DNA of 64,000 nt from Spirochaetia bacterium (GTDB taxonomy: Bacteria; Spirochaetota; Spirochaetia; DSM-2461), in the NCBI GenBank assembly GCA_963668315.1, contig OY764216.1, positions 1 through 64,000 of the forward strand. Direction: 5' to 3'. How positions within the stretch are numbered: position 1 is the stretch's first letter; every line of letters starts with the position of its first letter. Under the pieces are notes generated by a model. It worked only from the letters and a program-made list of their open reading frames with translations, did not search any database and was not told the DNA's origin. The translations under genes were made by a program, and so were the position numbers. This document shows positions 32,541 to 40,437 of this stretch, one piece after another.

Positions 32541-32599
32541 AAAAAAAAGCCGCAGGGATAACTGGTAAAAAGATCAGGGGCTGCAAACATCCCCGCGGC
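32541..32599 (-). terminator. Probable terminator of the atp operon
   Basis: Minus strand GCCGCGGGGAT...ATCCCTGCGGC (11 bp, one G-U pair, long loop) followed by T8, 12 nt after the HTH-EIIA stop. Confidence 0.65.
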
Positions 32600-32611: not shown

Positions 32612-33301
32612 TTAGTAAAGAATGCCTATCTCCCTCTCCATAAAAAAGCGGATCAGCTCCGTGGGAGATTTCATGTCCGCCACGACGGAAAGAAGCTGCG
32701 AGTCGCCGGCGATTCTTGTGAGCAGAGAGAGGACCCGCAGATGCACGGGATCCGAACTGGAAGCGATTGTGATGAAAAGATGGGTTTTTTCCCCGTCGAT
32801 GGCGTTGAAGTCGATCCCCTCGGGGCAGTATCCCACGGCGAGGGCGCTGTACCTGACGGGCGAAAGGCCCGACTGCCTGGGATGGGGCAGAGCGATACCA
32901 TGGCCGATCCCGGTGGACATGAGCTTTTCCCTCTCCAGGAGCTGCTGCAGATAGGAGTCCTCCTCGGACAGGGCGCCGCTCTGCTTCAATGCATGGCTGA
33001 GCGTCCTGAGAAGATGCTCGGGAGTAACGGCGGGAAGATCAAGAAAAACGCAGGAGGGATCGATCAGTCTGCCCAGGGAGATGGCGTCTTTCTGCGCATG
33101 AAGGGCATCGATGTAATCCTTCTGGGGAATAACATTCATCTGGGACTGGAGCCATCCGTCCAGCATGGTCTTCATAAAACGCCACTGGCCGCCAATCTTG
33201 GCGCAGGGGATGGCATTGTCCTCTATCATTCTGTGAATCGTCTTCTCGGAAACTTTCAGATACCGGGCCGTTTCGGCCAGAGTGAGTACGATGGATTCCA
33301 T
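32612..33301 (-). CDS. Excisionase-type (HTH_17/MerR-like) DNA-binding domain fused to PTS EIIA (Fru/Ntr-type)
   Basis: N-term 'LTLAETARYLKVSEKTIHRM....IP..KIGGQWRF'; C-term 'EREKLMSTGIGHGIALPHPR...GIDFNAIDG....LF......HLRVLS'. Confidence 0.9.
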   Translation of the reverse strand: MESIVLTLAETARYLKVSEKTIHRMIEDNAIPCAKIGGQWRFMKTMLDGWLQSQMNVIPQKDYIDALHAQKDAISLGRLIDPSCVFLDLPAVTPEHLLRTLSHALKQSGALSEEDSYLQQLLEREKLMSTGIGHGIALPHPRQSGLSPVRYSALAVGYCPEGIDFNAIDGEKTHLFITIASSSDPVHLRVLSLLTRIAGDSQLLSVVADMKSPTELIRFFMEREIGILY

Positions 33302-33307
33302 ATGATC

Positions 33308-33568
33308 CTATTTCCCCTCCGTCGCCACGACGATGGAACAGACATTATCTTCAAAGAGAAACGTCCCCCAGGAGACGGAAAGGGTGTGCTCCGCTCCCCG
33401 CCCATCGGTATACTCCACTTCAGACCCGGGCATGAGTATGCCCGCGAAGCCCTCATGACGGGGCTCGAATCCGAGGACGCCCCCGGGAGTCGTGATGCGG
33501 CAGTACCGCGCCTGTCCCTCGAAGGGGATTTTATTGTCCTCTGCAATGGTCAGCTTGAAGGTTTCCAT
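33308..33568 (-). CDS. atpC: F1 ATP synthase epsilon subunit, beta-sandwich only (86 aa)
   Basis: Directly after atpD; 'FKLTI.......FEG......TPGGVLGFEPRH', 'VSWG'; no C-terminal helices. Confidence 0.82.
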   Translation of the reverse strand: METFKLTIAEDNKIPFEGQARYCRITTPGGVLGFEPRHEGFAGILMPGSEVEYTDGRGAEHTLSVSWGTFLFEDNVCSIVVATEGK

Positions 33569-33570
33569 TG

Positions 33571-34986
<1,416 letters not shown>

Positions 34987-35853
34987 TTATCCCTTTAATG
35001 CTTCCTTACCGGATACGATTTCGATGAGCTCGTTGGTAATCGTAGCCTGGCGGGCATGATTCTGCATGGTGACATACTTGTTTATAAGGTCTTCCGAGTT
35101 GTTCGTGGCGTTCTCCATGGCCGTCAGCCGGGCGGAATGTTCGCTCAGAGCGGAATGGATGAGAAGAGCGCGGAGCTCGTCCTTAAGGTAGTTTTCCCCG
35201 TAGCCGGCGGCCAGCTCGTCACCGGACGGCTCGGAATCGAGAAAACCCGCAGGCTGTTCCTCTCCCTCATACGCGGGAAGAGGCAGCAGTCGCCGGCGGT
35301 CCGTATAGTGCTGGAGGGTGGATACGAACCGGTTTCCCAGAACCCAGACCTCCTGAATCTCTCCGGAAAGAAACCGCCGGTAAACCGATTCGGCAATTTC
35401 GGAAAGAACTTCGCGCGTCATAACCCGCTCGTGGTTCTCCTCCTTTCTGAGGATTTCCCAACCGGCCCTGCGGGCATGGTTGATTCCCTTGATACCGATG
35501 CAGGTGAACTCCAGTTCGACACCCTTTTTCTTCATCCGGGCGGCAAAAGAGTCGGCCGCCTTGAGAATCGCGCTGTTATGGGTGCCGCAGAGTCCCTTAT
35601 CGGCGGAGAAAATGATCATATGCGCCCGGGAAACCTTCCCGTAACCCCGGATAACCGGATGGGAAGAGTCCTTGAGCAGAGCGCTGATCTCCCGGAAGAT
35701 CCGGTCCGTCTCCTTCTGAAACAAAGCCGCCGAATTCTGAAGGGCCAGGAATTTTCTCAGCTTGATGGATGAGATCATATTCATGGCCCGGGTCACCTTC
35801 TGCATATTCTGCAGAGAGTGAATCTTCCGGCTTAAGTCTCTAACGTTACTCAT
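34987..35853 (-). CDS. atpG: F1 ATP synthase gamma subunit
   Basis: '[10 protein letters not shown]', 'ADKGLCG', '[15 protein letters not shown]', '[15 protein letters not shown]'; ATG overlaps the atpA stop (ATGA). Confidence 0.96.
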
Positions 35854-38027
35854 AATTCGCCCATTATATCCTTGACGATACGGCGGAGATCCGCAGGATT
35901 CTTCGCTTCCATCCACTCCTTCTCATAACGGGGATGCTGCACAATGCGGGCCAGAGCCGACAGAACAACCAGATGAAAATGCCTCTGATCCTGCGAACCG
36001 GCCAGGAAGTAGATGGAGTGAACTTCGTTCATCATATCACAGAAGTTAATCCCCTTCTTCGACCGGACGACAAGTAGTTTGAAGGTATCTTTCTGATCCA
36101 CCACAATATGGGGTATGGCGAAGAAGGGACTCAACGCGGTGGAACTGGACTCTTCCCGTTTGATAAATCGGTCGTACATCTCGTCCTTATCCAGGCCGGA
36201 ACCGTCCAAATGCTCAACGGCTTTTCTGAAAAGGTCCTCCATGGAGTCGTTCTTCTCGTAATCGATAAATTCGCAGGAATCAATCAGTCTGGCGAAGCGG
36301 TCCGCCTCGGTCTCGTCCTTGCCGGTCATGATCTCCTCGATCTCCGTTTCAAGGGAGGGAGAAGCGAACTCCCGGGCCGTCAGCCTTTCGACAAGCTTGA
36401 GCATGTCCCGGTTGATGGTGGAGGAGCCCTGACTCATGGCCAGGGAGATATTCAGGTTGAACCCGGAATCCACGCCGGAGACGGCCGAATCGGGCCGGAA
36501 TGTCTTCTCGAAGCGGTCGAATAGACCATTCAGCTCCTTATCCATCTCCTTATCGAAAGCCGCCCGGGAGCGAAGTTTGTCCATAAAAGCGGACTCTTCC
36601 CTGTCCAGAAAGGCAAAAAGTTCCTGCTGGTAGTTCAGAAGTTTCTCCGTGGGGTACTTATCCAGCCTTCCCAGGATGCCGGCCTTGAGAATCATGACCT
36701 GTTTGAACACGTCGATGGGACTGTACTGGGGCTGCTTGAGAATCTCTGTCAGTCCCTCTCCCCGGTGAAGCTGATTCTTCGTCGCCTCGTCCAGATCGGA
36801 GGAGAACTGCATGAAGGCGGCGAGCTCCCGGAACTGGGCCAGGTCGATACGGAGCGAACCGGCGGTCTGCTTCATGGCCTTGAGCTGGGCGTCTCCTCCT
36901 ACACGGGAAACGGAGATACCCACATTGATGGCGGGGCGCAGACCGGAGTTGAACAGGTTCGTTTCCAGGAAGATCTGACCGTCCGTTATGGAGATGATAT
37001 TCGTGGGAATATAGGCCGAGACGTCCCCTTCCTGGGTCTCTACGATGGGAAGAGCCGTCAGGGAACCGCCTCCCTTTTTATCACTCATTTTCGCCGCCCT
37101 TTCCAGAAGGCGGGAGTGGAGATAGAAAATATCGCCGGGATAGGCTTCCCGGCCGGGTGAGCGGCGCATCAGGAGGGAGAGCTCCCGGTAGGCCTGTGAA
37201 TGCTTGGTTAAATCGTCGAACACGACGAGGGCGTGCCGGCCGGTATCGCGGAAGTACTCCGCCATGGCCGTAGCGGCATAGGGCGCCAGGTACTGAAGGG
37301 ACGCGGGATCGGAGGCCGTGGCGGCCACGACGGTGGTGTACTGAAGAACCCCGTGTTTCCTGAGCGTCTCGATCAGCTGTACCACCGATGAGCGTTTCTG
37401 TCCGATGGCTACGTAGAAACAGTAGACCCGGTCTTCGTCGGTGGAGTTTTTCTGATTGATGATGGTGTCCACGGCGATGGTGGTTTTTCCCGTACGCCTG
37501 TCGCCGATGATCAGCTCCCTCTGCCCGCGGCCGATGGGGATCATGGAGTCGATGGCTTTGAGTCCGGTCTGCATGGGCTCATCGACGTTTTTCCTGTCGA
37601 TAATGCCGGGACCTTTGACTTCCACCCGGTTCCACTGGACCGGCTCGATGCCGCCCAGACCGTCGATGGGATTTCCCAGGGGGTCAACGACACGGCCGAG
37701 AAGAGATTCCCCCACGGGGACCTCGGCGACTTTCTGGGTCCGGCGCACCCGGTTGCCCTCTTTTACCTGGGCGTAGTCGGAGAAGAGGATGACGCTCACC
37801 GTCTCCTCTTCCAGGTTCATGACCATACCGTTCACGACGGCGCCCGATTCCAGATCAATTTCCACCAGCTCGCCCATGAGAATGTTATCCAGTCCCCAGA
37901 CCTGGGCGATACCGTCGCCCGCCTGGAGAACGCGGCCCGTTTCCACGGCGGCCGCTTCGGGGGCGAAACCGGAAATTCTGCTTTTCAGGACTTCCAGAAT
38001 CTCCGACGGTTTTATTTCTTCTCTCAT
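35850..38027 (-). CDS. atpA: F1 ATP synthase alpha subunit with C-terminal linker and PTS EIIA domain (725 aa)
   Basis: Alpha core aa ~1-510 ('GDGIA', '[17 protein letters not shown]', 'PGREAYPGD', 'SITDGQI'); aa ~578-720 EIIA '[18 protein letters not shown]...GINF...[12 protein letters not shown]'. Confidence 0.95.
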
Positions 38028-38569
38028 ATCGTTTTCCTCTTTAGGATGGCTTTGAAACTGTTCAGTCTTCCCCGCAGGGACATATCCAGGAATAGATTAT
38101 TCCACTGAAAGGTCAAACCGCCCAGCAGTTCACGGCGAACGCGCCAGACAGGGCGTATTCCGCCGCCGATGCGTTTTTCCAGTTGTTTTCCGATCTCTTC
38201 TTTCGTCTCGTCATCCTGCCCGGATGCACTCTCTATAACCACGGCGGTTATATTATTGGCCCGGTCCATCTCCTCCTGCAGCGCTTCCGCCAGGTAGGGA
38301 AGAGCTTCAAGACGATTGTTGCGAAGAAGCTCCCCGATGGTCCTGCCCGTATAGTAGCTCAGGTAGGGCAGAAAGGCCGTTTCGACGAAGATACGGTTTT
38401 TCCCGTAAGAATCGGAAGGATTCAGGCAGTACGGCCTTAACTCGGGCAGTTCCGAGAAAAGCCGGTTGAGCACGGCAATGTCCTCTTCCAGTTCCTTCAG
38501 CCGGGAATCTTCCCGGCTGGTCTCGTAAAGAGCCCGGGCATAGCGCTTAATTACCAAAAGCCCTTTCAT
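38024..38569 (-). CDS. atpH: F1 ATP synthase delta subunit
   Basis: 'KRYARALYE', 'LLRNNRL', 'ELLGG.......DMSLRGRL'; located between b and alpha. Confidence 0.9.
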
Positions 38570-39048
38570 AGTTCCTTAACCAATTCCCGGGTGAGTTCCC
38601 TCTCCCGGTCCCCCACGAAAGAAAATCCAGCCACCCTTTCCGAAGCATCGCATACAAAATCGGCCAGATCATCCTGCAGCTGTTCCATAACCGCCTGCCT
38701 TTCTCTGCCGGCCTGTTCCCGGGCCTGCGCCAGAATTTCCTGGGCTTCGGCCCGGGCCTGTTCGGTCAGGGCTCTCTTAAGCTCATCCGCCTGCTTCCGG
38801 GTTTCCAGAAGCATATCGTCCGCTTCCTTTCCGGCCTTTTCCAGTATTTCGGCCCTTTCCTCTTCTATCTCTTTGAGGCGGGCTTCCACCTTTGCCGTCT
38901 TATCTACGGAGGAGCTGATATAATCCTCTCTCTCCTGCAGATTTTTCAGGATAGCCGGTATGACAAACTTGGCGAGTATGAAAAAAAGGATGCCGAAAGT
39001 TATCCAGGTCCAGATCGCCAGACCCGGCTCAAGTTTAAATAAATCCAT
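38566..39048 (-). CDS. atpF: Fo subunit b
   Basis: Single N-terminal TM 'PGLAIWTWITFGILFFILAKF', then 'LQERE..I' and a long charged coiled coil. Confidence 0.93.
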   Translation of the reverse strand: MDLFKLEPGLAIWTWITFGILFFILAKFVIPAILKNLQEREDYISSSVDKTAKVEARLKEIEEERAEILEKAGKEADDMLLETRKQADELKRALTEQARAEAQEILAQAREQAGRERQAVMEQLQDDLADFVCDASERVAGFSFVGDRERELTRELVKEL

Positions 39049-39053
39049 CGTTC

Positions 39054-39281
39054 TTACTGAAAAATAACCAGCAGGGCGAGAATGGCTCCGAAGAATGCCA
39101 GACCTTCAACAAGGGCCGCCACAAGAATCATATTGGTTCTTATGTCCTTCTTTTCAGCGGGCTGACGGGCGATAGCTTCCAGAGCCCGACCGCCGACGAG
39201 ACCGATTCCGATACCTCCGCCGCAGATACCCATGCCGGCGCCAAGAACGGCCAATGCCTTTGCTAATAATGTCATGTCCAT
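39054..39281 (-). CDS. atpE: Fo subunit c (predicted proton-coupled)
   Basis: Gly-rich 'GAGMGICGGGIGIG', 'ARQP' loop, ion-binding Glu59 in 'AALVEGLAFF'. Confidence 0.96.
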   Translation of the reverse strand: MDMTLLAKALAVLGAGMGICGGGIGIGLVGGRALEAIARQPAEKKDIRTNMILVAALVEGLAFFGAILALLVIFQ

Positions 39282-39310: not shown

Positions 39311-40156
39311 TTAATGGGAACTTGCCATTGAGATAAAAATACAGCTGAGAAGAGTGAAGACCATCGCCTGAAGAAAGGCTATCAACACTTCCAATAAATA
39401 GGTAAACGCGGCAAAGGGGACCGCCACGAAACCGAAGAAGGGGCTGATGATGAAAATCAGCACCAGAAAAGACAGAATGGCCATATGTCCGGCGAACATA
39501 TTGGCGAAAAGCCGGAGCCCCAGGATCAGCGATTTGGTAAAGACGCTCAGGAACTCCAGGAGGGCGACGAATATCCCTATGCCGAAGGGAGTATCGGAGG
39601 GATAGAGGTTCTTGAAAAAGGCAGCCACGCCGATCTCTTTTATGCCCACCACGAAAGTCAGTATGAGAATGAGCACAGCCATTGACATGGTCACATTGAT
39701 ATTGCCCGTCGCCGTCTTGAAGGCGGGAATGAGTCCCAGAAAATTCACGGTTATAAGAAAGAGGAACATGGTGGAATAGAAGGGAATCCAGGGACGCCCT
39801 TTCTCCTTGCCCATGACGGAGTAAACAATGTCGTCCCTGACAAAGAGCACAATTGTCTCCAGAGCCAGCTGCGTCTTCTTAGGCTTCAGGACCTCCCTCT
39901 TGGAGAAGAGGCTGTACACGACCGATATGAGAAGAACGCTCAGGATCAGCATGAACTGATGCACGGTCATCCCGAAGGGAAGCGTGATGGAGGGGACATA
40001 GGGGAAAAGATCCAGTTCCGTGCCGTTGGCCACATGGTGAAACAGAGTACCGGATACGTCATTTTCCTGGGCGGACAATGACGGTCCGGCGAGCATCAGA
40101 CCGGGAAAGGCGAAAGCTCTCAGATATGATCCTTTTCTGTTTTTCACTCTTTTCAT
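39311..40156 (-). CDS. atpB: Fo subunit a with signal-peptide-like N-terminus
   Basis: 'NFLGLIP', 'TATGNINVT', essential Arg 'LGLRLFANMFAGH', 'LEVLIAFLQAMVF'. Confidence 0.94.
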   Translation of the reverse strand: MKRVKNRKGSYLRAFAFPGLMLAGPSLSAQENDVSGTLFHHVANGTELDLFPYVPSITLPFGMTVHQFMLILSVLLISVVYSLFSKREVLKPKKTQLALETIVLFVRDDIVYSVMGKEKGRPWIPFYSTMFLFLITVNFLGLIPAFKTATGNINVTMSMAVLILILTFVVGIKEIGVAAFFKNLYPSDTPFGIGIFVALLEFLSVFTKSLILGLRLFANMFAGHMAILSFLVLIFIISPFFGFVAVPFAAFTYLLEVLIAFLQAMVFTLLSCIFISMASSH

Positions 40157-40175: not shown

Positions 40176-40243
40176 AAAATAGTCTCTCCTGTCCTGAATA
40201 GTCAAGTTAAAATACCATATTGACCATCTTTGTCCATCTTTGG
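40176..40243 (-). promoter_or_regulatory. Candidate atp promoter(s) with a 10-bp tandem repeat
   Basis: Minus strand TTGACT-18-TATTTT (40205-40176) and TGGACA-16-TATTTT with TGn extension (40236-40209); plus-strand repeat TGACCATCTT/TGTCCATCTT/TG at 40221-40242. Confidence 0.45.
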
Positions 40244-40437
40244 CTACTCAACTTATTTCTTTTTTACATCTTTTCCGGTATTTTTTTATCTATTCCTGAT
40301 TTTTCGATGCCCTTTCCCGCAGGATTTTTCTCTCCCGCCCCCCCTTTATTCTCACCCTTTGCCCCCCCTCCCGGCTGTTGTTTTTTCCATTTTGTGTTAT
40401 AATCAGACATACTTTTACAAACTGAGGAGTTTCTATA

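Follow-up and report, generated by a model that had tools for sequence, protein, structure and literature searches.

PtsN, the EIIA-Ntr protein, usually sits in an rpoN-hpf-hprK-ptsH gene cluster; it has no DNA-binding domain and works by protein contact. In E. coli its unphosphorylated form inhibits the K+/H+ antiporter YcgO (PMC11808508). BldC of Streptomyces is a 68-aa stand-alone domain that acts both as a repressor and as an activator (PMC6428758), and its Lys26 and Arg30 make base contacts on a head-to-tail direct repeat that contains GGACA and has a 9-bp period at whiI (PMC5859096). In the literature that we examined, the described controls of bacterial ATP synthases are nucleotide- or conformation-based, i.e., the epsilon C-terminal domain, zeta and the mycobacterial alpha hook, the last being ~30 residues (520-548) that engage a gamma loop and inhibit ATP hydrolysis (PMC8617483). 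Some APC-family permeases also end in an EIIA domain, which is preceded by a linker helix. The pairing of EIIA with a helix-turn-helix (HTH) domain has a probable chlamydial precedent. Annotated as a PTS IIA protein with an HTH DNA-binding domain (PMC5723314), the chlamydial protein has by name the same domain pair as the regulator described below, and the portions of the literature covered by our search gave no operator, target or ATP synthase link for it. The same search returned no description of an ATP synthase alpha-EIIA fusion or of the regulator, supplements aside, and tables in genome papers may mention them; the main text of a 2026 PTS-Ntr review (PMC13104625), searched by word, contained none of 'ATP synthase', 'ATPase', 'fused' or 'DNA-binding'.

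The window, a 64,000-nucleotide stretch of a Spirochaetia genome (G000 below), carries on its minus strand a complete atpBEFHAGDC operon whose last gene is an ORF at 33301-32612 encoding a 229-aa regulator. Pfam matched HTH_17 (PF12728) at residues 5-54 (33140-33289; 54.6 bits versus a cut-off of 27) and PTS_EIIA_2 (PF00359) at residues 79-220 (32642-33067; 102.4 bits), and TIGR01764 also matched the HTH (46.9 versus a cut-off of 28.8). The EIIA domain contains the motif STGIGHGIALPH, with the His140 codon at 32884-32882, and its Arg124, Glu125 and His140 do not vary across the relatives aligned (50 of 50); the closest named relatives belong to the Spirochaetales. Translation is predicted to begin at an ATG 6 nt past the atpC stop (33310-33308), and the candidate ribosome-binding sites, which are purine-rich (GGAGG, and AGGA across the stop), sit within the 3' end of atpC. 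Beyond the gene, a hairpin (32599-32549) followed by T8 (32548-32541) forms a predicted intrinsic terminator (32541-32599) of -23.9 kcal/mol (z = -4.4), with 0 of 200 shuffles as stable; a consensus terminator scan missed it because of its large inner loop. The initial annotation had described a winged HTH fused to a canonical EIIA with His140, a start 6 nt after atpC with the ribosome-binding site inside that gene, and a hairpin plus T8, and each of these elements held up against the Pfam domains, the motif, the ORF coordinates and the shuffles. A promoter scan found no sigma70-like promoter in the interval from atpD to the regulator, and from the layout of the genes we infer that the regulator is probably co-transcribed with the atp operon. 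A candidate attenuator in atpC, a weak 6-bp hairpin with a T-rich tail (33377-33362), was rejected, as there were 10 such sites against a chance expectation of 10.4.

An alignment-based structure model of the regulator (pLDDT 89) replaced a single-sequence fold with a pLDDT of 37. Structural searches with it matched EIIA-Ntr (4GQX, Z 21.5) and, for the winged HTH, RdfS (8DGL, Z 7.2) and BldC (6AMK, Z 6.9, rmsd 2.0 over 51 aligned residues), the latter two Z-scores being middling; PDB sequence searches with the regulator did not reach BldC, which was found by structural search alone. In the model the winged HTH has a MerR-type fold without the coiled coil, as do BldC and the Xis/RdfS winged helices (PMC5859096, PMC6428758), and residues 3-53 superpose on BldC 9-60. 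If a single gap follows helix 2, an offset derived from these ranges and the helix boundaries, then Lys20 and Arg24 of the recognition helix would fall on the base-contacting Lys26 and Arg30 of BldC. The regulator thus resembles BldC in having a Lys and an Arg four residues apart in this helix and in its association with GGACA-containing direct repeats (PMC5859096). It differs in carrying a fused EIIA input domain and in having ion-moving membrane systems as its predicted targets, and the 229-aa fusion and 10-bp period exclude it from being BldC proper. By profile (PF00359), fold and Arg-Glu...His site the EIIA domain belongs to the Fru/Mtl/Ntr class, like that of PtsN, with which it also shares the lack of a sugar permease and a tie to cation/H+ antiporters (PMC11808508), although PtsN has no counterpart of the HTH. 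It is not a PtsN equivalog, as TIGR01419 gave 56.5 bits against a cut-off of 138.7, and its gene lies away from hprK and ptsH, which sit at 1.56 Mb with no EIIA match there. Human SLC4 transporters have cytoplasmic domains that matched the EIIA fold as well (Z 11-15), a further instance of this fold on an ion transporter.

Profile searches of the genome located ten EIIA domains, one HPr, HprK and three Enzyme I genes above cut-off (one with a GAF domain), so that the EI, HPr and HprK sought in the initial annotation are all present. Five Enzyme I-like genes could be distinguished: a plain one, the one with GAF, one whose N-terminal extension had no match, and a near-identical pair within a duplicated block. 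The EIIB/EIIC families PF02378, PF02302 and PF03609 had no match in this 97% complete genome, in which the controls did match, so the PTS looks purely regulatory; with no cognate permease among these three families, we rejected the idea that the regulator is the EIIA of a sugar-transporting PTS. Apart from the two in the atp operon there are eight EIIA domains, six of them attached or adjacent to membrane transporters: three accompany Na_H_Exchanger-family antiporters, two are part of APC permeases and one goes with an ArsB/CitMHS-type permease. Of the remaining two, one belongs to an HTH-EIIA paralogue at 2.63 Mb, unlinked to the operon, and one stands alone.

The operon itself, all on the minus strand, begins with atpB (a subunit, 39311-40156) and continues with atpE (c, 39054-39281), atpF (b, 160 aa, 38566-39048), atpH (delta, 38024-38569), atpA (alpha, 725 aa, 35850-38027), atpG (gamma, 34987-35853, TIGR01146 above cut-off), atpD (beta, 33571-34983, TIGR01039 above cut-off) and atpC (epsilon, 86 aa, 33308-33568); atpB, atpF, atpH and atpA were assigned from profile matches, atpE from profile and ligand spacing, and atpC from ORF, Pfam and an epsilon length survey. 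With all eight subunits, the beta Walker A and the c-ring Glu in place, this is a standard F1Fo enzyme. N-ATPases are marked by the absence of delta and a long extension on b (PMC4154653), and that class was ruled out by the presence of delta, the 160-aa b and a TIGR03324 score of 580 bits versus a cut-off of 750.5. In Na+-coupled F-ATPases the c-subunit ligands are Gln/Glu32, Ser66, Thr67 and Tyr70 around Glu65 (PMC3692424); the positions matched by spacing from Glu59 are here Ile26, Gly60, Leu61 and Phe64, which excludes that class, and because Glu59 is without Na+ ligands the enzyme is predicted to be H+-coupled. Epsilon consists of the beta-sandwich only, with no C-terminal helices. Wherever it was located at fused loci (35 of 35) it is 82-96 aa long, against at least 107 aa at 31 of 35 plain loci; we rejected the notion that a short epsilon is special to fused operons, as the C-terminal half is missing from Chlorobi and Bacteroidetes as well (PMC4154653).

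What sets this alpha subunit apart is a C-terminal tail (approximately residues 540-725; 35850-36410) made of a linker helix and an EIIA domain (PTS_EIIA_2 at residues 592-720) with His640. The tail matched that of an APC-family permease (PF13520 + PF00359) at 33% identity over 178 aa (E 5e-31) and, linker included, clusters with the tails of APC permeases, away from the HTH-EIIA lineage (this and the other trees quoted are quick or FastTree trees). The initial annotation had taken the two EIIA domains of the operon to be independent, and their separate origins on the EIIA tree bear this out. Of 89 alpha-EIIA matches, 88 share the architecture (88 clusters), with His640 invariant in 88 of 88, and they were seen in Spirochaetota, Kiritimatiellota, Lentisphaerota and Fibrobacterota. 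The fusion occurs in 10 of 60 relatives, and among 401 genomes of the class an open frame of at least 726 aa was present in 24 of the 84 that carry atpA. All 43 fused alphas on the alpha tree form one clade (support 99) with one tail-less member inside, a topology that suggests a single origin. One genome has two divergent, back-to-back atp operons, of which the first encodes alpha-EIIA and the other a plain alpha (L221, G182:C150), and the alpha-EIIA gene of a Kiritimatiellota contig has no gamma or beta behind it (L025, 1246-3459). Two loci show decay: a fused alpha broken into 613 + 109 aa (L226, G222) and a fused-clade alpha of 560 aa without an EIIA match (L232, G196).

Based on the promoter data that follow, we consider it likely, with some reserve, that the HTH-EIIA protein controls its own atp operon via three GACA repeats, with PTS phosphorylation predicted to set its activity. 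The predicted operator upstream of atpB (40213-40250, minus strand), identified by a repeat matrix and by conservation, consists of three 10-bp-phased GACA-type repeats (40250-40221) and a weaker fourth unit. The repeats end 15 nt before the -35 box of a predicted sigma70-type promoter (TTGACT, 18 nt, TATTTT; 40176-40205, minus strand) found by promoter scan, the -35 box being conserved in six genomes. The training set of the three-unit matrix (3 x W) consisted of 20 Arg-type HTH-EIIA promoters, all from other genomes; as a guard against circularity it included neither the source genome nor genes inside atp operons. In a scan of repeat periods, period 10 totalled 337 versus 158 in shuffled sequence and period 9 totalled 188 versus 142, with periods 8, 11 and 12 at background. 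The consensus unit of the Arg-type genes is ATAAAGGACA, and the matrix scored at least 8.6 on 13 of 14 held-out Arg-type promoters; 19 Lys-type genes yielded the consensus TATAAAGGAA. At the genes' own promoters (L115-L141, L198-L214), a recognition-helix Lys in place of Arg accompanies GGAA- instead of GGAC-type 10-bp repeats, a correspondence that comes from essentially one Lys clade.

Among the 2,502 upstream regions of the genome (genes called with our own simple gene finder), the matrix gave rank 1 to the paralogue, ranks 2 and 9 to two EIIA-antiporter operons, rank 7 to a V-ATPase operon and rank 19 to atpB. Four of nine EIIA-bearing units were in the top 19 (hypergeometric 3e-7, or 2e-5 without the paralogue); the remaining five ranked 244-1659, and they include the genome's two APC genes (1293 and 1659), which, in contrast to the atp operon with its EIIA tail on a rotary ATPase, lack the repeat. 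Across four training sets, half of which omitted the family that the window belongs to, atpB ranked 11-19; with the genus or the whole family left out it ranked 11-16 and the V-ATPase operon between 4 and 34. The atpB site of the source genome is moderate (11.4 bits), and unrelated genes rank higher. The top 20 contained two PAS-LuxR genes (G000:C1 1582583-1583692 and 1592415-1593512), MsrAB (905982-906857), an SNF symporter (2204968-2206440) and a CoA-activase-type gene (2685383-2689732), which may be further targets or noise. Besides the F-type operon the genome has two V/A-type ATPase operons (G000:C1 575547-583374 and 2090783-2097854), with a repeat at the second only. The data did not support V-ATPases as a conserved part of the regulon, as an Arg-type site was present in 1 of 30 relatives and a Lys-type site in 3 of 30, including one Arg-type genome.

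Comparison between genomes tied the site to the regulator family. At a shuffle p of 0.02 or less, an atpB site was called in 4 of 4 genomes with the linked gene, in 7 of 17 with an unlinked Arg-type gene (leaving 10 of these 17 without one) and in 0 of 10 without an Arg-type gene; the Lys-type matrix gave 0, 3 and 0 in the same groups. The Fisher p of 0.005 is overstated because kin are not independent. The count leaves out G029 and G035, whose atpB is within a cassette, G064, where the regulator lies immediately upstream, G066, G196 and every metagenome contig, and its last group includes G063 and G065, which carry a divergent Arg-Trp type; the own promoters of two Arg-Trp-type members scored 10 and 14. 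Between the end of the site and TTGAC there are 15 nt in G000, G061, G059, G002 and G003 and 16 nt in G007, and in an ungapped alignment of these six genomes on the TTGAC box three CA dinucleotides stay in phase and the rest has diverged. Without the linked gene, the site still occurs in G002, G168, G225, G020, G032 and G045; G003 has it as well, and no linked gene was found there, although its atpC is unassembled. The linked gene is thus dispensable. The occurrence of the site in 7 of 17 genomes with only an unlinked paralogue indicates that control belongs to the HTH-EIIA family and not to the linked gene alone, and in the source genome too the paralogue at 2.63 Mb likely reads the atpB site. 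The initial annotation had proposed that the protein autoregulates atp transcription; the positionally conserved repeats at atpB favour that idea, and it needs amending in that the control is a property of the family.

The linked gene itself is uncommon. HTH-EIIA follows atpC in 4 of 28 assessable alpha-EIIA genomes (G000, G007, G059 and G061) and in 0 of 14 metagenome contigs, and these four operons, together with that of G002, form one alpha sub-clade (support 89). We therefore rejected the linked gene as a fixed part of alpha-EIIA operons, and the regular partnership that the initial annotation had envisaged did not survive the co-occurrence count. G002, of the same genus and inside the sub-clade, has lost the regulator gene. 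The distribution points to one acquisition followed by inheritance or transfer, and because of the single sub-clade and the loss within it the 4 of 4 linked operons with a site count as one event. The linked regulators group in a clade of their own (support 100), which comprises 14 clusters at no less than 54% identity and was found in 3 of 401 class genomes, every time after atpC. The regulator family as a whole was found in 43 of 66 genomes searched, and other members head the atp operon in G064 and, along with an EIIA and an antiporter, in G035. A third case of decay (L208, G020:C3) is an HTH-EIIA gene that a stop splits, ahead of an EIIA-antiporter pair.

Such arrangements raise the alternative that the gene is a passenger or spare copy that arrived in an HTH-EIIA/EIIA/antiporter cassette, the atp site being read mainly by the unlinked paralogue. 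G059, in which atpC, HTH-EIIA, EIIA and an antiporter stand in a row, and G035, with its cassette ahead of atpB, fit this account, as do the absence of the gene from 24 of 28 operons and the strong site (21 bits) kept by G002 without it. However, the gene is intact, with its invariant Arg-Glu and His, and its distinct clade lies after atpC in all four genomes where it was found. In addition, G059 and G061 have the atpC-linked gene as their only family member found at E <= 1e-22, and the sole other member in G007 is Lys-type, yet the atpB site there is Arg-type; as all three keep the site, with the linked gene the only (in G007 the only Arg-type) member found, they support autoregulation, and we regard the passenger account as unlikely.

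We give little credence to a second alternative, in which the repeats are read by another protein or serve as a bending or UP-like A-tract element and HTH-EIIA acts elsewhere. The genome does have nine HTH_17 matches in total, and the units are A-rich, in helical phase and adjoin the -35 box; against this, a matrix built from HTH-EIIA promoters selects EIIA operons, none of the ten genomes without an Arg-type gene has the site, and the conserved letters are G-CA and not A-tracts. PTS phosphate normally passes from EI to HPr, EIIA and EIIB, not from EIIA to EIIA. A third alternative, in which the regulator acts mainly at the enzyme through the binding or phosphate relay to the alpha-fused EIIA that the initial annotation had raised, is the least probable of the three, since, although the two proteins share an operon and both His sites are invariant, such a transfer, in itself unlikely, would run against that order, the tail is kept in 88 clusters and the linked clade in only 14, most fused operons are without the regulator gene, four genomes (G052, G394, G195 and G066, all incomplete) have a fused alpha with no regulator-family match at E <= 1e-30, and the tail belongs to the separate EIIA lineage of APC-permease tails.

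Returning to control of atp transcription by HTH-EIIA, the protein would bind the three atpB repeats head to tail, as BldC does on its own repeat, a mode that the 10-bp spacing supports indirectly, and this binding is predicted to modulate transcription; the feedback loop would be closed because the regulator is the operon's last gene. We lean modestly toward activation at atpB, since the site lies upstream of the -35 box. Of 36 own promoters of Arg-type genes, 23 were callable and 13 were not; in 21 of the 23 the site lies over the -35 box or downstream of it, a position that would fit repression there. HPr is predicted to phosphorylate His140 of the regulator and His640 of alpha in parallel, not one from the other, and our guess, only slightly better than even and made by analogy with PtsN, is that the unphosphorylated form is the DNA-binding state. 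Given that the enzyme is predicted to be H+-coupled and lacks the epsilon C-terminal domain, a role in pH and cation homeostasis together with antiporters is likely. The best reading of the regulator is as PTS-responsive control of an ion-homeostasis regulon that includes an H+-type F1Fo, i.e., PtsN-type control of ion transport read out via a BldC-type domain, and its distinctive feature is the membership of an F1Fo operon, one whose alpha bears an EIIA, in this HTH-EIIA 10-bp-repeat regulon.

As alpha has its own EIIA, the PEP/phosphate relay would likely set both the amount and the running of the ATP synthase. By analogy with the mycobacterial hook (PMC8617483, PMC5990651), the alpha tail may be a phosphorylation-gated brake that replaces the epsilon C-terminal domain. 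Both are C-terminal extensions of alpha near the rotor, in three copies, although the alpha tail has ~190 residues, a folded EIIA and a conserved phospho-His in place of the short gamma-engaging hook (PMC8617483). We offer only tentatively, as a doubtful whole, the combined scheme in which the PEP/HPr relay sets atp transcription via HTH-EIIA and activity via an APC-derived alpha EIIA tail replacing the epsilon brake, within a regulon of cation/H+ antiporters. If true, an ATP synthase would for the first time be seen to be switched via a phosphorylated histidine on one of its own subunits, and proton pumping would be coupled to PEP/pyruvate and nitrogen state by a PTS line that reaches both atp transcription and an F1 subunit. 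The comparison also supplies a testable operator, and a candidate residue for reading bases, for a regulator family that is widespread and uncharacterised. For the cultured Spirochaeta cellobiosiphila there are records of both proteins (WP_028975237.1 and WP_083963847.1), which places bench work within reach.
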